Positions 3,298-64,000 of a DNA stretch of 64,000 nt are shown here, piece after piece. Position numbers and translations under genes: made by a program. The stretch lies in the sequence record OQ561750, one strand, 5' to 3'. Under the pieces are notes generated by a model, which ran no database searches, was not told the DNA's origin, and saw only the letters and a program-made list of their open reading frames with translations. Origin of the DNA: Escherichia phage LHE83. Every line of letters starts with the position of its first letter. Position 1 is the first letter of the stretch.

Positions 3298-3756
3298 ATG
3301 TCAGAAATTAATTCAGAAGTATTCATCCGCCGCAATAAATTACGTCGTCAGTTCGAAACCGAATTCCGCGAACTGAATGCGTCCATCAAAAAAGCCGCCA
3401 TTAAGAGCGGAGTCCCAGCCTTCTTTATTAAGTACTCTAATCACTTGTTGGACCGTGCTATCCAACGTGAAATCGACGAAAAATACGTTTTTGCTTTATT
3501 CAAGCAACTCCATAACCATGTTAAAGAAATTCATGAATTTTTAATCCAGGAACCTCTGCCTGATGTAGAAGCCGAAATCATTCCTGGTAAAGTGTATCGC
3601 CCATTGCGTCTCGAAATTACCGATAAAACCTTATGGCTAGGTATGACTGTAGATCGTAAACATCCTGATAAAGGATACTCGTTAAAATGTCGTATGGCAT
3701 TTGTTAACTCTAAACGTTTAGAAGGTAAAACCAGCACGAAAGTAATCTATCTTTAA
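3298..3756 (+). CDS. regB: RegB site-specific endoribonuclease
   Basis: Internal ATG after the promoter cassette; MSEINSEVFIRRNKLRR...LLDRAIQREIDE resembles T4 RegB; track start 3139 runs through the promoter. Confidence 0.85.
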   Translation: MSEINSEVFIRRNKLRRQFETEFRELNASIKKAAIKSGVPAFFIKYSNHLLDRAIQREIDEKYVFALFKQLHNHVKEIHEFLIQEPLPDVEAEIIPGKVYRPLRLEITDKTLWLGMTVDRKHPDKGYSLKCRMAFVNSKRLEGKTSTKVIYL

Positions 3757-7107: not shown

Positions 7108-7110
7108 TCA

Positions 7111-7138
7111 AAGGTCTCACTTCGGTGGGACCTTTTTT
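7111..7138 (+). terminator. rho-independent terminator (UUCG-loop hairpin plus U-run)
   Basis: AAGGTCTCAC-TTCG-GTGGGACCTTTTTT. Confidence 0.6.
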
Positions 7139-8981: not shown

Positions 8982-9988
8982 GAACAGTTATGAAAGGCTA
9001 CTTCGGTAGCCACCTTTATGGAACAAGTACTCCAGAATCTGATGTCGATTTTAAAGAAATCTTTGTTCCACATCCGCGTGATATTCTGTTAGGTACGGCT
9101 ATGAACCATACCAACCTGAACACGAATAACACTGCTTCCAAAAACACCAAAGATGATGTAGACCATGAGCTTTACAGTCTGAAATATTTCTTTAAACTAG
9201 CGGCTGAAGGTGAAACCGTTGCTCTGGATATGCTTCACACTCCACCTGAACTAGTGGTTAAATCTGATTTACCTGATGTATGGAAATTTATCCAAGACAA
9301 CCGTTCTCGGTTCTATACAACCAACATGAAAGCCTATTTAGGGTACGTCCGTAAGCAAGCTTCTAAATATGGTGTTAAAGGTTCTCGTCTGGCTGCTCTG
9401 CGTGGTGTACTGGCAATCGTTAACCAGATTCCTGAACAGTGGATTGATTACCAAGAAGATGGTTCTACTAAACAACGTCGCACTAAGGTAGAAGATATCA
9501 AACATCGACTCCCTGAAAATGAGTTCTGTGAATGGGCATTCCATAACCATGAGAAAACAGGTCCTCAAACGTTCTATACTGTTCTCGGACGTAAATACCA
9601 AACCACTCTGTCATTAATCGAGCTCAAGCAATCTCTGAATAAGCTTGATGCCGAATATGGTGAACGTGCTCGTAAGGCTGAAGCTAACGAAGGTATTGAC
9701 TGGAAAGCTCTGAGCCATGCTTATCGTGCTGGTTATCAGTTGAAGGAAATCTATCAAACTGGTGACCTTCAATATCCTTTACGTACAGCGCCGTTTATCC
9801 TTGAAATCAAACAAGGGCTTCATGCTTTTAAAGATGTACAGGCCGAACTTGAAGCTATCGTTGATGAAGTCGAAACTAATGCTATCTGGGCCGCTAAGAA
9901 CGGTATGCCTGAGAAGGTAGACATGAAGTTCTGGGACAAGTTCGTTGAGCAGGTTTACCTAGAAAACCATAACTCGTATTATAAATGA
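8978..9988 (+). CDS. nucleotidyltransferase-fold protein (Pol-beta superfamily)
   Basis: N-terminal GSHLYGTSTPESDVDFKEIFV matches the G-S...D-x-D nucleotidyltransferase motif; ATGA overlap start. Confidence 0.55.
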   Translation: MRTVMKGYFGSHLYGTSTPESDVDFKEIFVPHPRDILLGTAMNHTNLNTNNTASKNTKDDVDHELYSLKYFFKLAAEGETVALDMLHTPPELVVKSDLPDVWKFIQDNRSRFYTTNMKAYLGYVRKQASKYGVKGSRLAALRGVLAIVNQIPEQWIDYQEDGSTKQRRTKVEDIKHRLPENEFCEWAFHNHEKTGPQTFYTVLGRKYQTTLSLIELKQSLNKLDAEYGERARKAEANEGIDWKALSHAYRAGYQLKEIYQTGDLQYPLRTAPFILEIKQGLHAFKDVQAELEAIVDEVETNAIWAAKNGMPEKVDMKFWDKFVEQVYLENHNSYYK

Positions 9989-9990
9989 TA

Positions 9991-10010
9991 AAGGCCTTCG
10001 GGCCTTTTTT
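9991..10010 (+). terminator. rho-independent terminator
   Basis: AAGGCC-TTCG-GGCC followed by TTTTTT. Confidence 0.6.
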
Positions 10011-29051: not shown

Positions 29052-29054
29052 GCA

Positions 29055-29075
29055 AAGGGACTTCGGTCCCTTTTT
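29055..29075 (+). terminator. rho-independent terminator
   Basis: GGGAC-TTCG-GTCCC followed by TTTTT. Confidence 0.6.
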
Positions 29076-35412: not shown

Positions 35413-36107
35413 AACACATTACCGCTGTTAGTTTTGAAAACGCGTTTAAGCAAATGAACGAAGAAATCCTGGAAGCTCCACAGTTTGCAGTTGATTCTCG
35501 TATCGGCCGTTGTTATGAAATTGGTTCTGCTTCGGTAGAAGTACTGGATGCAAGCACCTATAAATTCACCGACCCTCGTATTAATCGTATCAACTATGAT
35601 TATGCCGAATCTTTCTGGAAGTTTATGATTTCTGGTGGTACTGACGCCGCCGAAGCATTTAAGGAATACCCTAATGTTGCTAAGTTCATTGATAAGCCGA
35701 AAAGTGACGTATTGCCTGCAAACTTCAACACTTTCTATGGACCTAGAATTGTGGCCCAACTCCCAGCCTTACTTAAAGAGCTTAAAGAGAAGCCTAACTC
35801 AAGACGAGTTGTGTTCCAAATTCTCCAAGAACAAGACCAAGCCCTCCTTGATTCTGACGAATCCTTAGAATATCCATGTACTGATTCAGTGACATATTAT
35901 ATTCGTGATGGACGTCTTTATGCACATACCCATATGCGTTCACAGAACTGTGCTATTGTTATGCAGCTGGATTTCTATCTGCAGGGTAAACTGATGGCCT
36001 TTATTGCTGAACAGTGTGGTGTTGGTCTGGGTACGTATTCCCATACTATGGTTAGTGCACACGTATTTGAACGTGATTTTGACTACGTTCGAGGATTCCT
36101 GAAATGA
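35409..36107 (+). CDS. 42: dCMP hydroxymethylase (thymidylate-synthase fold)
   Basis: KPNSRRVVF, YPCTDSVTYYIRDG...HMRSQN and VSAHVFER align with T4 gp42 active-site segments from memory; syntenic position. Confidence 0.75.
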   Translation: MKHITAVSFENAFKQMNEEILEAPQFAVDSRIGRCYEIGSASVEVLDASTYKFTDPRINRINYDYAESFWKFMISGGTDAAEAFKEYPNVAKFIDKPKSDVLPANFNTFYGPRIVAQLPALLKELKEKPNSRRVVFQILQEQDQALLDSDESLEYPCTDSVTYYIRDGRLYAHTHMRSQNCAIVMQLDFYLQGKLMAFIAEQCGVGLGTYSHTMVSAHVFERDFDYVRGFLK

Positions 36108-38569: not shown

Positions 38570-39993
38570 AAACTATTTTGGCTCAACTGCTAGGCAATAG
38601 TGATTATTTCACTAAGGTCTGGCCTTATATGAATGATTCTTATTTTGACCAGGGTCCTGCAAAGACCCTTTTCAAAGAAATTAAAAAACACGTCAATGAA
38701 TATAATGCAGTGCCTTCTAAGAACGCGCTGAGCATTGCATTAGATAACAGCACGCTTTCAGAAGTTGAACACCAAGGCGCTAAAGAGCTTTTAAGTTCAC
38801 TGAATGCCGGACCTGAAGACCAAGAATGGTTGGTTAAAGAGACGGAGAAATACGTTCAGAAAGCAGCGATGTATAATGCAACTTCAAAAATCATTGAAAT
38901 CCAAACTAATGCAGACCTTCCGGTTGAGCAACAAAATAGAAAACTTCCAGGTATTGGTGCTATTCCAGATATCATGCGTGATGCATTATCGATTTGTTTC
39001 GATTCTGAATTAGGTCATGACTGGATGGATGACTATGAAGAACGTTTCAAAAGTTATTCTGATAAAGCACGTAAGGTTCCGTTCCGTCTTAATATTCTGA
39101 ATAAGATTACCAAAGGTGGTGCCGAGTTTGGTACTGAAAACGTATTGTTGGCAGGAACAAACGTAGGTAAGTCTCTTGGTCTTTGTTCATTGGCTGCTGA
39201 TTATCTTCAATCTGGTTACGATGTTCTTTATATCTCCATGGAGATGGCAGAGGAAGTATGTGCTAAGCGTATCGATGCCAACCTTCTGGATGTGTCACTG
39301 GATGATATCGATGACGGCCATGTCTCTTGGCCTGAATATAAAGCTAAGATGGATAAATGGCGTTCAACTGCTACTTTAGGTCGTTTAAAGATTAAACAGT
39401 ACCCTACCGGTGGCGCTAATGCCGATACATTCCGTGCATTATTAAACGAATACAAACTCAAACAAAACTTTGTTCCACAGGTCGTTATCGTCGACTACTT
39501 GGCCATCTGTGCATCATCTCGTACGAAAGTTTTCTCTGAAAACAGTTACGGATTGATTAAGATGGTAGCCGAAGAACTACGTGGACTTGCAGTAGAAAAG
39601 AAATTATTGTTGTGGACTGCAGCCCAGACTACTCGTGGTGCGAACGTTGCAGCCGAAATCGATATGGCTGATATTGCTGAATCCTTTGGTATTGCACATA
39701 CTGCAGACTTCATGTTAGGTGTGGTCGAGACAGAAGAGTTTGCTCAGATGGGTATGCAGATGGTTAAGCAGCTTAAATCTCGTTATGGTGATAAGAGCTA
39801 CTACAACAAATTTAAGATTGGTGTTAAGAAAGGAAATCAACGTTGGTACGAAGTTGAAGACGATTCCAACCCAGGCCAGGTGAACACCGTTCGTGAGGCT
39901 ACAGGTGAGATGAATCGTCAAGCCGAGGTCAATCGACAGACGCTTGTTAATAGAAGTGATTTGGACGATTTAGCAGCATCTATCAAATTTTAA
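38563..39993 (+). CDS. 41: replicative DNA helicase gp41 (DnaB-like)
   Basis: GTG start chosen by alignment to the T4 gp41 N-terminus (MVE.IL); AAGAGGTGG Shine-Dalgarno; Walker A GTNVGKS; C-terminus as T4. Confidence 0.9.
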   Translation: MVETILAQLLGNSDYFTKVWPYMNDSYFDQGPAKTLFKEIKKHVNEYNAVPSKNALSIALDNSTLSEVEHQGAKELLSSLNAGPEDQEWLVKETEKYVQKAAMYNATSKIIEIQTNADLPVEQQNRKLPGIGAIPDIMRDALSICFDSELGHDWMDDYEERFKSYSDKARKVPFRLNILNKITKGGAEFGTENVLLAGTNVGKSLGLCSLAADYLQSGYDVLYISMEMAEEVCAKRIDANLLDVSLDDIDDGHVSWPEYKAKMDKWRSTATLGRLKIKQYPTGGANADTFRALLNEYKLKQNFVPQVVIVDYLAICASSRTKVFSENSYGLIKMVAEELRGLAVEKKLLLWTAAQTTRGANVAAEIDMADIAESFGIAHTADFMLGVVETEEFAQMGMQMVKQLKSRYGDKSYYNKFKIGVKKGNQRWYEVEDDSNPGQVNTVREATGEMNRQAEVNRQTLVNRSDLDDLAASIKF

Positions 39994-40013
39994 GGAGCTT
40001 CGGCTCCTTTTTT
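39992..40013 (+). terminator. rho-independent terminator
   Basis: AGGAGC-TTCG-GCTCCT followed by TTTTTT. Confidence 0.6.
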
Positions 40014-44107: not shown

Positions 44108-44131
44108 AAGGAACCTTCGGGTTCCTTTTTT
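44108..44131 (+). terminator. rho-independent terminator
   Basis: AAGGAACC-TTCG-GGTTCCTT followed by TTTT. Confidence 0.6.
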
Positions 44132-53095: not shown

Positions 53096-53356
53096 ATGAA
53101 ATATATTAATCGTTCTATTGCAGCTCTCGTATTAGCAGTTTCTTTGGTTGGATGTACTGATGCCGATAATGCTACCCGTGTATTGGATGCAAATGGCTAC
53201 GAACAAATCCAAATCACAGGATACAACCTATTTGGCTGCTCTGAAGATGATTTCCAACGTACAGGCTTTATTGCTGTGGGTCCGACAGGTAAAAGGGTTG
53301 AAGGAACTGTTTGTTCTGGATTATTCTTTAAAAAGTCGACCATTCGATTTGATTAA
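53096..53356 (+). CDS. hypothetical lipoprotein
   Basis: Signal peptide plus LVGC lipobox. Confidence 0.55.
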   Translation: MKYINRSIAALVLAVSLVGCTDADNATRVLDANGYEQIQITGYNLFGCSEDDFQRTGFIAVGPTGKRVEGTVCSGLFFKKSTIRFD

Positions 53357-53373
53357 GGGCTTCGGCCCTTTTA
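53355..53373 (+). terminator. rho-independent terminator
   Basis: GGGC-TTCG-GCCC followed by TTTTAT. Confidence 0.5.
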
Positions 53374-55447: not shown

Positions 55448-55467
55448 AAGGGCCTTCGGGCCCTTTT
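55448..55467 (+). terminator. rho-independent terminator
   Basis: AAGGGCC-TTCG-GGCCCTT followed by TT. Confidence 0.55.
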
Positions 55468-59231: not shown

Positions 59232-59267
59232 AATTAAACGGAGGCTTCGGCCTCCTAAGAGGAAATT

Positions 59268-60329: not shown

Positions 60330-60587
60330 ATGAAATTCTATTACGCCAAACATAAAATTACCCGTGAGTTTGTATCGTTTTCAACCTTTTCAGATGAAGA
60401 AGACTTTTGCATCACTGGTCTGGATTTATCTAAATATGAAACCGACCAGCCTTATTTGACCACTCATGACGAGATTCAACGTTTGGTGAACGGTGAGCTA
60501 AATAATTCTTACTGCACTCAAATTTACCCTGCTTTGAAAAAAGCTATCAATGCTAATCAGATTGAAATCATTGAGGTGGAATTGTGA
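60330..60587 (+). CDS. hypothetical protein (tandem paralog)
   Basis: ORF track; KFYYAKHK N-terminus shared with the next gene. Confidence 0.5.
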   Translation: MKFYYAKHKITREFVSFSTFSDEEDFCITGLDLSKYETDQPYLTTHDEIQRLVNGELNNSYCTQIYPALKKAINANQIEIIEVEL

Positions 60588-60850
60588 ATATCAAATTATA
60601 TTACGCTAAACACAAAGTTACGGGTACGGTTGTTGCCGCCATGTATGACGCGTCAGGTGATGGTGACGATATTACTACAGAGTTATCTCTTTCTGAATGT
60701 AAATTTCTCCGTCCTTTAATCGCATCAAAGGAAGATTTACAAAAACTTATCGATGGAAAACTGGATAATGTTGATGGCATAGATATTCTTTATGACCTTC
60801 GCACTGCATTGTACAGAGGATTGATTGAAATTAAAGAGGTAGTATTTTGA
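60584..60850 (+). CDS. hypothetical protein (tandem paralog)
   Basis: GTG start with GAGGTGG Shine-Dalgarno; KLYYAKHK N-terminus. Confidence 0.5.
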   Translation: MNIKLYYAKHKVTGTVVAAMYDASGDGDDITTELSLSECKFLRPLIASKEDLQKLIDGKLDNVDGIDILYDLRTALYRGLIEIKEVVF

Positions 60851-60995
60851 GTAGCAAAATGTGGTGCCTTATTTGGTTGACCTGTATCCCAGTGATTTGC
60901 GTATGTTTTAGTTTATTGTTGTGAAAATTGGCATAAAACAGTGTACATCTCCATTAATCATGATATTATAGACCTATCAACTAATGGAGATGATT

Positions 60996-61106
60996 ATGAA
61001 AAACTTACTTAAAGCAATTTGGAACATGTTTGTGTTGTTAATGGTATTGAGCATTTTCCCAATCGTTTTTATGATTGACCATGTACGTGTATTCTTTAAT
61101 TTCTGA
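60996..61106 (+). CDS. hypothetical small membrane peptide (36 aa)
   Basis: Read by eye; follows the promoter cassette at 60941-60990. Confidence 0.35.
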   Translation: MKNLLKAIWNMFVLLMVLSIFPIVFMIDHVRVFFNF

Positions 61107-61116
61107 GGAAAATATT

Positions 61117-61329
61117 ATGAAACTTTTTAAAGATGTCGCAGTTGGTGAGAGCTTTGTATTACATAACGGCCAACAACTGATTCGCATTTCTCCTTTGCAA
61201 GTTGGTACTGAATTACAACCTGTTAATGCCACAGACCTTTATGATTCAACTAAGCGTTTTTGTGTAGGCCCTAGTGTGCAATGCCTTACTGTTGATGAAC
61301 TGATGGCTATTTCTGTTGACGCTGAATAA
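61117..61329 (+). CDS. hypothetical protein
   Basis: Internal ATG after GAGGAAAAT Shine-Dalgarno of track ORF 61075. Confidence 0.5.
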   Translation: MKLFKDVAVGESFVLHNGQQLIRISPLQVGTELQPVNATDLYDSTKRFCVGPSVQCLTVDELMAISVDAE

Positions 61330-61339
61330 GGAAAATATT

Positions 61340-61684
61340 ATGTCTAAATTATTTTTTGGTAATCGCAACATTATGTTCTTTAAACAACTCAGCCTCCAAG
61401 ATGCATCGGTGGCATTCAATCAAAGTATGATTCCCGGTGTAGATTCAAAAATTATGACGAGTGCTGATTTCGTTTTCGTTCAAGACCCAGAAACAGGCTT
61501 TTATCGGTTCATTAAATTTCGTATGAGTATGGACCCAGGTTATCATAGTGCTTACTACGTGAGTTATGAAAACGTTATCAAAGAATTACGTGATACCTAT
61601 GGACGCGCTTTGAACCCGCTGAACAAGGTTTATAATGCTTCTTTTTATACGAGCGGATTTATTTTAGAACAGCTACAAAAATAG
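61340..61684 (+). CDS. hypothetical protein
   Basis: Internal ATG after AAGGAAAAT Shine-Dalgarno of track ORF 61316. Confidence 0.5.
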   Translation: MSKLFFGNRNIMFFKQLSLQDASVAFNQSMIPGVDSKIMTSADFVFVQDPETGFYRFIKFRMSMDPGYHSAYYVSYENVIKELRDTYGRALNPLNKVYNASFYTSGFILEQLQK

Positions 61685-61712
61685 TTTACAACCTCGAGAA
61701 TCGTGTTATAAT
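61684..61712 (+). promoter_or_regulatory. early promoter
   Basis: GTTTAC then 17 nt then GTTATAAT; inverted repeat around the -10. Confidence 0.5.
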
Positions 61713-61761
61713 GGTTCTCGTTGACTGGATAACAAAACATTAATCTACTGAGGAAATTGAT

Positions 61762-62211
61762 ATGAATACTTATATGACTCGCCGTAACGTTCTGTCTGCT
61801 GGTGCTACTACTGTTGCTTATGTTAAGAACGGTGAATACCAAAATGGTAAACCTTCTAAAGAAATCTCTGCTCAGCCAGGCTTCTACTTCTTTGTTAAAG
61901 GTGGTGCTGATTCTCGTGTCGTAGCGGCTCGTTTTTATGTCGGTAATCAACGTTCGGCCCAAGGGCTCGACGGTATCGTGGCTAACATTCGTAAGAAACG
62001 TTCTCAATCAGCTCGCACTATGGCAGTGAACGGTGTTGTGTATGAAGTTCTTTATGTACCGGCTTCTAAGATGAAACCCCTGACTACAGGTTTTGGTAAG
62101 GGTCAAATTGCAATGGCTTTCACTCGTAATCATAGTTCCGACCTCCAGACACTGGAAGAAATGAACCGTATGTTGGCTGATAACTTTAAATTCATCCTGC
62201 AGGCTTACTAA
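61762..62211 (+). CDS. ndd: Ndd-like nucleoid disruption protein (tentative)
   Basis: 149 aa; position upstream of stp; FYVGNQRS...[12 protein letters not shown]...MLADNFKF recalled as Ndd-like; unverified. Confidence 0.5.
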
Positions 62212-62288
62212 TGAGTAATTTCCATAACGAGCATGTGATGCAGTTCTATCGTAACAATCTTAAAACTAAAGGCGTCTTCGGACGCTAA
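62211..62288 (+). CDS. stp: Stp peptide (activator of host PrrC anticodon nuclease)
   Basis: 25-aa [28 protein letters not shown] matches the T4 Stp sequence as recalled; TAATG coupled. Confidence 0.7.
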
Positions 62289-62298
62289 TGAGGAAAAT

Positions 62299-62460
62299 AT
62301 GGTTATCCTAGTTTTTATTGAACTTATTATGGCTATAGTCTGTTCAGTTTGCTTCTTTTTAGGTGTGTGGGCCCCTCGTCCGATATTCTTAAGTTTTCTG
62401 CTTATTGGTTGGGTTCTTTCTACTTTTGTCGGTTTACTTAAGACGATTAAAAATGATTAA
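62299..62460 (+). CDS. hypothetical small membrane protein (Ac-like by position and size)
   Basis: Read by eye; 53 aa, hydrophobic; GAGGAAAAT Shine-Dalgarno. Confidence 0.4.
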   Translation: MVILVFIELIMAIVCSVCFFLGVWAPRPIFLSFLLIGWVLSTFVGLLKTIKND

Positions 62461-62593
62461 TAAAATCCTGGGCTACTCGTTAGCCCTTGCTGCTTTATTA
62501 GTAGCGCTGTATTACGGAGTAATGTTCGGACTTATCCAAGTTGTGCTTTTTATTTCCGATGTTATTATGGCTATTCATTCACTAGTATGGTAA
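62453..62593 (+). CDS. hypothetical small membrane protein
   Basis: Internal ATG of track ORF 62405; ATGA overlap. Confidence 0.4.
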   Translation: MINKILGYSLALAALLVALYYGVMFGLIQVVLFISDVIMAIHSLVW

Positions 62594-62597
62594 AATT

Positions 62598-63977
62598 ATG
62601 GCTGATGTAATTGATACCCTTTTTAAACAGGCTTTAGATGTTTACGATGATTCTTTCACTCGTCGTGACTTAAAAAGTATTATCGACAACGAAGCATTGG
62701 CTTATGCAATGTATACTGTCGAAAACCGAGCCATTCCAAATATGATTGATGGCTTTAAACCTGTACAACGTTTTGTAGTGGCTCGTTGTCTTGATATGGC
62801 TCGTGGTAATAAAGAAAAATTCCACAAACTGGCTTCTATCGCTGGTGGTGTAGCCGACCTCGGATATCACCACGGTGAAGGTTCTGCTCAGGAAGCAGGG
62901 GCTTTGATGGCTAACACATGGAACAACAACTATCCATTGTTAGACGGTCAAGGTAACTTCGGTTCTCGATTGGTTCAAAAGGCTGCAGCCTCTCGTTATA
63001 TTTTTGCTCGTATCGGAAGTAACTTTGCAAAAGTTTATAAGGACACAGAATATGCTCCGGTTCATGCGGATGTCGAACATAAGCCACCGGCTTTTTATCT
63101 GCCTATTATTCCTACTGTTCTTCTTAATGGCGTTTCCGGTATTGCAACTGGTTATGCAACTAATATTCTTCCTCATAGTTTTGATTCTGTTAAGAAAGCT
63201 GTACTGCAAGTTCTTCAGGAAAAACGAGTAACCAAACCCAAAGTGGCTTATCCTGAATTCCGTGGTGAAGTTGTTGAGATTGAACCTGGTAGTTATGAGA
63301 TTCGTGGAACGTATAAGTTCACATCCCGAACCCAAATGCATATCACGGAAATCCCATACAAATACGACCGTGAAACATATGTGGCTAAGGTATTAGACCC
63401 TCTGGAAGACAAAGGGTATATCACATATGATGATGACTGTGACGAGAACGGTTTTGGCTTCAAGGTTAAGATTCGTAAAGAATACGAATTGCCTACCGAA
63501 GAAAACAAGAAGCATGAAAAAATCATGAAGGACTTCGGGTTAATCGAACGTCGTTCACAAAACCTGACCGTCATTAATGAAAAAGGTAAACTTAAGGTTT
63601 ACGAAGATGCAGTTGAACTGATTCGTGATTTCGTTGAGGTCCGTAAGACCTTTGTACAAAAACGTATTGATGGTAAAATCATCGAAACCGAAGAAGCTTT
63701 TAAACTAGCATTGGCTAAAGCCACATTCATCAAAGATGTTATTGACGGGACTGTAGTTATCCAAGGTAAGACTCGTAAGGTTTTAACTGAGGAATTGGCT
63801 GGTAATAAAGTCTACGGCGAATACGCTGATAAACTGGTTGCAATGAACATTTTCCATATCACATCCGATGAAGCCAAGAAACTGGCCCTCGAAGCCAAGG
63901 CTAAGAAAGAAGAGCATCAATACTGGAAATCTACTGATGTGGTAACTGAGTATGTTAAAGATTTGGAGGCTCTATGA
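62598..63977 (+). CDS. 52: DNA topoisomerase II medium subunit gp52 (GyrA-like)
   Basis: 459 aa; N-terminus YAMYTVENRAIPNMIDGFKPVQRF (GyrA signature); active-site region SRYIFARI. Confidence 0.9.
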   Translation: MADVIDTLFKQALDVYDDSFTRRDLKSIIDNEALAYAMYTVENRAIPNMIDGFKPVQRFVVARCLDMARGNKEKFHKLASIAGGVADLGYHHGEGSAQEAGALMANTWNNNYPLLDGQGNFGSRLVQKAAASRYIFARIGSNFAKVYKDTEYAPVHADVEHKPPAFYLPIIPTVLLNGVSGIATGYATNILPHSFDSVKKAVLQVLQEKRVTKPKVAYPEFRGEVVEIEPGSYEIRGTYKFTSRTQMHITEIPYKYDRETYVAKVLDPLEDKGYITYDDDCDENGFGFKVKIRKEYELPTEENKKHEKIMKDFGLIERRSQNLTVINEKGKLKVYEDAVELIRDFVEVRKTFVQKRIDGKIIETEEAFKLALAKATFIKDVIDGTVVIQGKTRKVLTEELAGNKVYGEYADKLVAMNIFHITSDEAKKLALEAKAKKEEHQYWKSTDVVTEYVKDLEAL

Positions 63978-64000
63978 GCCTTGGAGTCGAGTTCTTGTTA

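Follow-up and report, generated by a model that had tools for sequence, protein, structure and literature searches.

The stp gene of Escherichia phage LHE83 and the C(UUCG)G hairpin at its 3′ end

Organization of the ndd-stp-ac region and identity of Stp

The window analysed here, a stretch of 64,000 nucleotides from Escherichia phage LHE83 (sequence record OQ561750), carries on its + strand the genes ndd, stp, an ORF at the position of ac, 52.1 and 52, arranged in the same order as in T4. The segment is 99.5% identical to the Escherichia phages WG01 and PSD2002 (Straboviridae, Tevenvirinae, Dhakavirus). The first gene, ndd (61762–62211; PF06591, 230 bits; PHROG 1102), encodes a nucleoid disruption protein of 149 aa with 64% amino acid identity to T4 Ndd, and is followed by the 25-codon stp gene (62211–62288). 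The ac-position ORF (62299–62460) is a diverged allele, with 36% amino acid identity to T4 Ac; it encodes a predicted small membrane protein of 53 aa and matches PHROG 9347, for which the function is unknown. Its ATG (62299–62301) closes a translation initiation region, TGAGGAAAATATG (62289–62301), in which GAGG (62290–62293) forms the Shine-Dalgarno sequence, and is located 12 nt past the hairpin described below. As in T4, gene 52.1 (62453–62593; 46 aa; DUF7396, PF24129, 78 bits; 96% amino acid identity to T4 gp52.1) shares its first 8 nt with the end of ac. Gene 52 (62598–63977) encodes the medium subunit of DNA topoisomerase II, as annotated in relatives, and shows 81% amino acid identity to T4 gp52. 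Upstream of ndd, a sigma-70-type early-promoter-like site was identified purely from a consensus scan (61685–61712, + strand; TTTACA, a 16-nt spacer and TG-TATAAT, with 11/12 matches), and this candidate promoter is likely to be the start of an ndd-stp-ac-52.1-52 transcript.

The stp reading frame extends from the ATG at 62211–62213 to the TAA at 62286–62288 on the + strand. Its peptide is identical to residues 1–25 of T4 Stp (25/25; reference NC_000866, 165505–165585; protein NP_049878.1), which has a total length of 26 residues. The match to the Pfam family PF08133, 'Anticodon nuclease activator family' (Nuclease_act), reaches 72.1 bits (cut-off, 25) and covers profile positions 1–25 of 26, and PHROG 6763 matches the peptide with E = 1.6e-20. 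A sequence search of the PDB with the Stp peptide returned no chain. The ORF is almost certainly the stp gene of a T4-like Dhakavirus. This is in line with the initial annotation, which had recognised the peptide as T4 Stp; the alignment with T4 stp that it proposed as a check found the peptide conserved rather than diverged. Within the genus, the stp gene of Dhakavirus JS10 (ACL78482.1) encodes the same 25-aa peptide, contains the same hairpin and is annotated as 'stp activator of host PrC lysyl-tRNA endonuclease'. The two genes differ by one synonymous change in codon 7, which is GAA in JS10 and GAG in the window.

At its 5′ end stp shares one base with ndd, whose TAA (62209–62211) overlaps the stp ATG to form TAATG. 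In view of this overlap and of the lack of a good Shine-Dalgarno sequence ahead of stp, the translation of stp is probably coupled to that of ndd, as had been proposed before. At the 3′ end the reading frame is closed by tandem in-frame stops, TAA TGA (62286–62291), whereas the T4 counterpart reads CAG TGA and yields the 26-aa peptide. The last residue of T4 Stp, Gln26, is absent from LHE83 Stp, with CGC CAG TGA in T4 replaced by CGC TAA TGA in the window. The loss of Gln26 is probably neutral, since the activity of Stp is contained in the N-terminal 18 residues and the C-terminal 8 codons can be deleted with moderate loss.

In T4, Stp acts as an inhibitor of type IC restriction enzymes, namely EcoprrI and EcoR124I (PMC3014915, PMC12707154). 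In prr+ hosts it unmasks the latent anticodon nuclease PrrC, which cuts tRNA-Lys 5′ to the wobble base, and the cut tRNA-Lys is mended by T4 polynucleotide kinase and RNA ligase 1 (PMC3014915, PMC12707154). The activity of Stp maps to the N-terminal 18 residues, with a cluster of suppressor mutations at residues 4–14 (PMC3014915). Deletion of the 8 C-terminal codons lowers both activities only moderately, and the Stp tail is polymorphic among T4 relatives (PMC3014915, PMC12707154). In LHE83 the active N-terminal part is identical to that of T4 in 18/18 residues, which suggests that its Stp would likewise act as an inhibitor of type IC restriction and as an activator of PrrC. It would bind and inhibit type IC enzymes such as EcoprrI and EcoR124I, as known from T4; in prr-carrying hosts latent PrrC would be released, with cleavage of the tRNA-Lys anticodon loop, and the phage polynucleotide kinase and RNA ligase 1 would then repair the cut tRNA. 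The tRNA repair genes pseT and rnlA, both located outside the window, are annotated in the 99.5% identical WG01, so that the nearest sequenced relative encodes the full Stp/Pnk/Rnl1 set. The initial annotation had grouped stp with dmd, ipI and the ADP-ribosyltransferases as host-defence-interaction genes of the window. For dmd and the ADP-ribosyltransferases this agrees with the matching stretch of WG01, in which modA, modB and dmd are annotated; for ipI the correspondence is limited to an internal virion protein annotated in WG01 near the stretch that maps to the first bases of the window.

Structure of the 3′ hairpin and its relation to other UUCG hairpins

The 3′ end of stp contains the hairpin GGCGUC-UUCG-GACGCU (62271–62286, + strand), which spans codons 21–25 (GVFGR) and extends to the first base of the stop codon. 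The 5′ arm GGCGTC (62271–62276) and the 3′ arm GACGCT (62281–62286) enclose the loop TTCG (62277–62280), and the stem consists of five Watson-Crick pairs (GCGTC/GACGC) and a G62271·U62286 wobble pair. The minimum free energy is −9.3 kcal/mol, a stability reached by none of 200 shuffled sequences (z = −3.47), and in a 280-nt context the pair probabilities are about 0.99 (0.88–1.0). Over the 131-nt region taken together there is no unusual degree of structure (z = +0.29), and the structure signal is confined to the hairpin. The element at the stp 3′ end is real and highly stable, and is a C(UUCG)G tetraloop hairpin such as is typically encountered in T4 mRNA. In T4 itself the sixth pair is G-C and the hairpin reaches −11.5 kcal/mol, compared to G·U and −9.3 kcal/mol in the window. 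T4 and the window thus have in common residues 1–25 of Stp, the position of the gene between ndd and ac, the TAATG overlap, the 3′ hairpin and the sequence TGAGGAAAATATG following it. According to the activity map of Stp in the literature, the part of the peptide encoded by the hairpin falls entirely within the dispensable tail.

The GCGTC-TTCG-GACGC stem and the missing U-tract correspond to the initial description of the element. The stop codon had also been placed inside the hairpin; this needs correction, as the TAA abuts the stem, with only U62286 able to pair (as the G·U wobble), and is directly followed by the in-frame TGA at 62289–62291. No U-tract is present 3′ of the hairpin, where the flank reads AAUGAGGAAAAUAUGG, no + strand match was obtained at the stp hairpin in a terminator scan, and an Rfam scan of 61000–63000 (E ≤ 1) identified no family. 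Because it lacks a U-tract, the stp hairpin is not an intrinsic terminator, as had already been suggested in the initial annotation.

A role as transcription terminator or attenuator after stp has been assigned to this hairpin in the record of phage G10400 (MK327937), where it is labelled 'putative transcriptional terminator, -10.30' on the stp strand and the stp gene itself is missed. Seven other UUCG hairpins of the window are indeed terminator-like, but each of these has a U-tract. Apart from the flank and the empty + strand scan, such a role is contradicted by the arrangement of the region, in which the next three genes follow at a distance of at most 12 nt, with no strong promoter-like site ahead of them. 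The scan flagged a reading on the − strand (GCGUC-CGAA-GACGC followed by CUUUAGUUUU), but Gaprivervirus has another flank and does not conserve it. A terminator or attenuator function is thus very improbable. The same − strand element was considered as an antisense terminator and rejected: its loop is not a stable tetraloop, the hairpin is weaker (−6.8 kcal/mol), and the T-rich flank is lost in Gaprivervirus.

UUCG hairpins whose stems have 5 bp or more are strongly enriched on the + strand of the window, with 13 observed against 1.8 ± 1.4 expected from a first-order Markov model; the − strand contains 2. Ten of the 13 are located at or just past the end of an ORF, one lies just inside an ORF start and two are within ORFs. 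In seven of them the stem is followed by a T-run and then by a TTTAC-type, −35-like sequence, so as to form terminator-promoter cassettes. The stp hairpin is unlike these seven in that it has neither a U-tract nor a promoter behind it, and it is one of four UUCG hairpins without a U-tract (8996–9011, 35525–35540, 59240–59255 and 62271–62286). C(UUCG)G tetraloop hairpins of T4 mRNA were reportedly the subject of work by Tuerk et al. in 1988. The stp hairpin resembles the T4 hairpins in its C-G-closed UUCG loop, its short G+C-rich stem, its presence on the sense strand and its location at a cistron boundary, but differs from them in lying within coding sequence (codons 21–25) instead of in an intergenic spacer. 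It is a member of this known class and not particular to LHE83. Hairpins of the C(UUCG)G type, which are exceptionally stable, were originally reported from T4 mRNA (PMC4371310).

Among the hairpins of the window, the one at 59240–59255 is closely similar to the stp hairpin, and it is the only other intergenic UUCG hairpin without a U-tract. It follows a 321-codon rIIB-like ORF and ends 12 nt before an ATG, and a GAGGAAA Shine-Dalgarno sequence comes after it.

Codon choice, conservation and possible exchange of the stp 3′ end

Given the peptide GVFGR and the codon usage of the window, the probability of obtaining five Watson-Crick pairs together with a UUCG loop is 1.9e-4. The hairpin requires four minor codons (GGC, 0.20; GTC, 0.13; GGA, 0.15; CGC, 0.10). 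The low codon-choice probability, about 2e-4, argues for selection on the structure. The stem is kept in 20/20 distinct Straboviridae stp sequences of the GVFGR type, collected from records of Tequatro-, Dhaka- and Gaprivervirus as well as from contigs of IMG/VR and metagenomes, and in Gaprivervirus it persists though stp has diverged at no fewer than 12 other positions. Stem changes among the 20 sequences are limited to two kinds, A→G facing U and C→U facing G. These are compatible with pairing, but they are uninformative, since any third-position transition would preserve the pairs. No compensatory (double-sided) covariation is observed among the 20 distinct sequences, and third positions vary at a similar rate in the hairpin codons (3/5) and in the rest of stp (12/20).

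Comparison with stp genes that do not have the hairpin indicates how far peptide and structure are linked. The Kagunavirus tail, ...KTKGVFGK, is encoded without a hairpin and differs at 6–7 of the 15 hairpin nucleotides, versus 6–7 of 60 elsewhere (Fisher p 0.005–0.02). Since Kagunavirus keeps GVFGK in this way, the nucleotide pattern is lineage-specific and not forced by the peptide. In the T2-type stp, with the tail NFGILGFKK, the hairpin is absent in the same operon context, and the hairpin must therefore be dispensable to the operon. Genes with and without the hairpin alike encode the tail motif G-[VI]-[FL]-G-[RKF]; the peptide motif is therefore primary and the hairpin a lineage-specific overlay.

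More distant homologues of Stp, searched for with degenerate DNA patterns, occur in siphophages, including Citrobacter phage Stevie (AIX12335.1, annotated as Stp) and contigs of Kagunavirus, Skatevirus and Drexlerviridae. These peptides of 25–31 aa conserve the N-terminal motif M-S-[NS]-[FW]-H-N-E-H-[VI]-M-Q-[FW]-[YWH]-R, but have different tails, no UUCG hairpin and another genomic context. In the Drexlerviridae, the 3′ end of stp overlaps a different, repeated element of 22 nt. The homology in Kagunavirus, Drexlerviridae and Skatevirus is restricted to the 75-nt stp ORF, which is sometimes found beside a polynucleotide kinase gene.

The stp gene of the window forms an island of high identity to T4. 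Synonymous differences amount to 2/23 of the amino-acid-identical codons in stp, compared to 41/90 in ndd and 159/348 in gene 52 (46% in the flanks). Sliding identity to T4 is 93–100% across most of 62149–62296, with a dip to 73–77% around 62180–62220 at the ndd/stp junction, versus 45–80% in most of ndd and 23–47% in ac; precisely at the ac ATG it falls to 47% or below, and in 52.1 it is again about 87–90%. The 13 nt following the hairpin, TGAGGAAAATATG, are invariant in 20/20 hairpin-bearing loci, and at least five unrelated ORF starts occur after the ATG. In addition, T2 has the ac allele of T4 with a different stp tail, while the window has the stp of T4 with a different ac. The simplest reading of these patterns is recombination, in which ac would be a hypervariable cassette flanked by conserved sequences, with stp and the initiation region before it and 52.1 behind it. 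The conservation of the hairpin among T4-like genera may then result from recent recombination rather than from selection on the structure, and because of the identity island, conservation counts for less as evidence that the hairpin has a function.

These observations also bear on the view that the hairpin itself is functionless, in which the peptide motif G-[VI]-[FL]-G-[RKF] predisposes the RNA to pairing and the stp cassette has recently been exchanged by recombination. A 5-bp stem is formed by 8% of the GVFGR codings at the codon usage of the window if G·U pairs are allowed, and the full stem of 6 pairs by 4% of the 768 synonymous codings when these are weighted equally. The identity island, the scarcity of synonymous differences in stp and the absence of compensatory covariation agree with this view, as do the T2-type, Kagunavirus and Bas95 homologues, which keep a G-x-x-G tail without a hairpin. 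It does not account well for the all-Watson-Crick stem with its UUCG loop and four minor codons, nor for the persistence of the hairpin in the diverged Gaprivervirus genes, and the hairpin fits into the strong, strand-specific excess of the same hairpin type at gene ends in this genome. On balance a hairpin without function is rather unlikely.

The same exchange pattern can be described at the DNA level, with the stp 3′ end and the ac initiation region serving as a homology anchor which, together with 52.1, would let co-infecting T4-like phages swap ac alleles. The abrupt loss of identity at the ac ATG with its recovery at 52.1, the unrelated ac starts behind a single invariant junction, and the reciprocal combinations of stp and ac in T2, T4 and the window are all consistent with such an anchor. 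It explains why the block is conserved, but gives no reason for the block to form a hairpin. Such an anchor is quite improbable; being compatible with every other explanation, it is no true competitor to them.

Possible functions of the hairpin

By analogy with its class, the hairpin may act as a post-transcriptional boundary for decay or processing, which would separate the ndd-stp message from the ac-52.1-52 message. This plausible reading, which agrees with the RNA stability or processing element put forward in the initial annotation, is favoured tentatively, at somewhat less than an even chance. The hairpin would block 3′-to-5′ exonucleases, and in this way protect the ndd-stp RNA. Alternatively, or in addition, cleavage in the A/U-rich sequence CUUAAAACUAAAG just upstream would leave the stem-loop at the 5′ end of the ac-52 RNA, where it could be protective. 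In the literature searched, no RNA-end mapping or half-lives pertaining to the stp hairpin were found. Considered as a whole, a stp gene with a C(UUCG)G hairpin of the known class and a possible post-transcriptional boundary is the best explanation of the locus, and a probable one.

The close spacing of hairpin and ac start raises the question of an effect on translation. One proposal is that the hairpin and the invariant TGAGGAAAAUAUG together form a translation-initiation module for ac. In such a module the hairpin, once refolded, might stop the backward sliding of ribosomes that have terminated on stp and promote reinitiation 10 nt downstream, or it might fix the structure just 5′ of the Shine-Dalgarno sequence. 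This would fit with the invariance of the 13 nt past the hairpin in all 20 loci in spite of completely different ac alleles, and with the hairpin at 59240–59255, which likewise ends exactly 12 nt before an ATG and is followed by GAGGAAA. The spacing pattern, however, consists of two cases only, and T2-type phages express the ac allele of T4 without a hairpin. Moreover, the predicted accessibility of the Shine-Dalgarno sequence and AUG is equal with and without the hairpin; for the ac Shine-Dalgarno sequence it is 0.34 in the native RNA versus 0.30 ± 0.08 in 40 synonymous variants with a broken hairpin. A translation-initiation module for ac is improbable. For a role of the hairpin as an insulator of the ac ribosome binding site, the partition function calculations gave no support, with unchanged accessibilities of the Shine-Dalgarno sequence, the AUG and the initiation region in the 40 variants.

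Translational bypassing of the T4 gene 60 type was also considered. In gene 60, the take-off GGA is located directly before the stop codon and a UUCG hairpin 3′ of it; a landing GGA matches the take-off codon, and the ORF that follows is conserved (PMC3014915). The stp 3′ end contains two in-frame GGA codons (62280–62282 and 62292–62294) which flank CGC TAA TGA, but the geometry is wrong: CGC separates the first GGA from the stop codon, the hairpin is situated around this GGA and on its 5′ side, not on its 3′ side, and the frame after the second GGA has 9 codons and is not conserved in T4. Bypassing was rejected on these grounds.

Returning to the decay or processing boundary, a more specific form of this reading can be proposed, in which the hairpin with TGAGGAAAAUAUG would be a selected RNA boundary module between ndd-stp and ac-52, and stp would separately be a minimal and often exchanged anti-restriction cassette. 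This combined proposal is rather unlikely. The near-identity of stp across T4-like genera and its ORF-only homology in siphophages would be marks of such exchange, and this distribution would imply that type IC/PrrC-like pressure is felt in a far wider range of enterobacterial phage families than expected from the T-even model. The T4 stp gene is a convenient site for testing UUCG hairpins that are not terminators, because synonymous mutants in which the hairpin is broken should leave Stp activity intact.

Stp, its mechanism and the C(UUCG)G hairpins of T4 mRNA have been described since 1988–1995. All three are thus already known from T4, and stp has been annotated in the same genus. The practical value of the present analysis is in annotation, with respect to a missed 25-codon gene and a mislabelled hairpin: the 25-codon stp is unannotated in the WG01 RefSeq record and in many other records.

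Identity around stp and its annotation

Comparison of the window with T4 reveals an island of 93–100% nucleotide identity at positions 62149–62296, interrupted by a dip to 73–77% across the ndd/stp junction. The island comprises the final ~20 codons of ndd, the whole of stp (62211–62288) and the initiation region of ac, whereas its flanks are much more divergent from T4, with identities of 45–80% in ndd and 23–47% in the hypervariable ac; in 52.1 the identity is back up to about 87–90%. The same local conservation is evident at synonymous positions, where stp differs from T4 at 2 of 23, and ndd and gene 52 at about 46%. On the basis of these alignments, the identity pattern around ac looks like a recombination mosaic.

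In the majority of T4-like records among the tblastn matches stp is not annotated. It is likewise unannotated at 166127–166213 in the RefSeq record of phage WG01 (NC_031928), which is among the closest relatives. In the record of phage G10400 (MK327937) the stp hairpin, at 166542–166557, carries the label 'putative transcriptional terminator', while the stp gene itself was missed.

Stp homologues outside the Straboviridae

Homologues of Stp are also found outside the Straboviridae, in phage records and metagenome contigs of 40–60 kb (retrieved loci L004, L005, L011–L017, L024–L028, L030 and L032–L072). These peptides share the conserved N-terminal motif MS[NS][FW]HNEH[VI]MQ[FW][YWH]R. They occur in Kagunavirus, in Bas95, in the Drexlerviridae phages Lg3, Stevie, N5822 and BHUENT9, and in the Skatevirus/Deseoctovirus phages seszw and S192. 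The Kagunavirus peptides end in the tail GVFGK, and the first 60 nt of their genes show about 88–90% nucleotide identity to T4 stp, with flanks that are unrelated to those of the T4 gene. Stevie and N5822 also carry a polynucleotide kinase gene, 0.5–1.2 kb downstream of stp. The name Stp is already given in Stevie's own record; a full-text literature search found no paper in which Stp and the Drexlerviridae are mentioned together.

The stp genes of the Drexlerviridae overlap at their 3′ ends with a 22-nt element, AAATAGCAC(GAA/TTT)TTG(C/T)TAAAAC, of which at least five copies are present, each after an early gene. In Citrobacter phage Stevie these lie at 728–749 and 1563–1584 of one retrieved locus (L014) and at 1153–1174, 2273–2294 and 3644–3665 of another (L075). 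Downstream of every copy there is an inverted repeat that surrounds a TATAGT/TAAAGT-like hexamer. The element is retained in N5822 even though stp ends there in a different frame, using the TAG of the element as its stop codon. This arrangement is reminiscent of T4, in which the stp tail enters a repeated intercistronic element type.

Two metagenome variants (L024/L049, on a 4022-nt contig, and L036) have lost the stp stop codon. In one, a Kagunavirus-type Stp (…GVFGG) is joined to the downstream ORF in a 74-residue fusion; in the other, a T2-type stp reads onward into the ac region. These variants may be either real fusions or assembly errors.

In the window, the in-frame sequence GGA CGC UAA UGA GGA (62280–62294) lies beside the UUCG hairpin. 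Its likeness to the T4 gene 60 bypass signals is superficial; both the geometry and the fact that no extended frame is conserved speak against bypass of any kind.

Other UUCG hairpins and promoter-like sequences

Seven further UUCG-loop hairpins in the window (7110–7135, 9990–10007, 29054–29073, 39992–40009, 44108–44127, 53355–53370 and 55448–55465) lie directly 3′ of ORF ends and are followed by a T-run, after which most show a GTTTAC-type −35-like sequence. They look like cassettes of a terminator and an early promoter, and resemble the 'PeSL' cassettes known from T4-type hyperplastic regions.

The UUCG hairpin at 59240–59255 (GGAGGC-UUCG-GCCUCC, −12.2 kcal/mol) is a second one that lacks a U-tract, and lies 8 nt past the stop codon of the 321-codon rIIB-like ORF. 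Its 3′ end is exactly 12 nt away from the next ATG, and a GAGGAAA Shine-Dalgarno sequence comes after the hairpin, a layout geometrically identical to that of stp/ac.

A strong sigma-70-type promoter-like site, comprising TTTACA, a 16-nt spacer and TG-TATAAT (11 of 12 matches), is present at 61685–61712, 50 nt 5′ of ndd, and is the top match of a consensus scan within 60500–64000.
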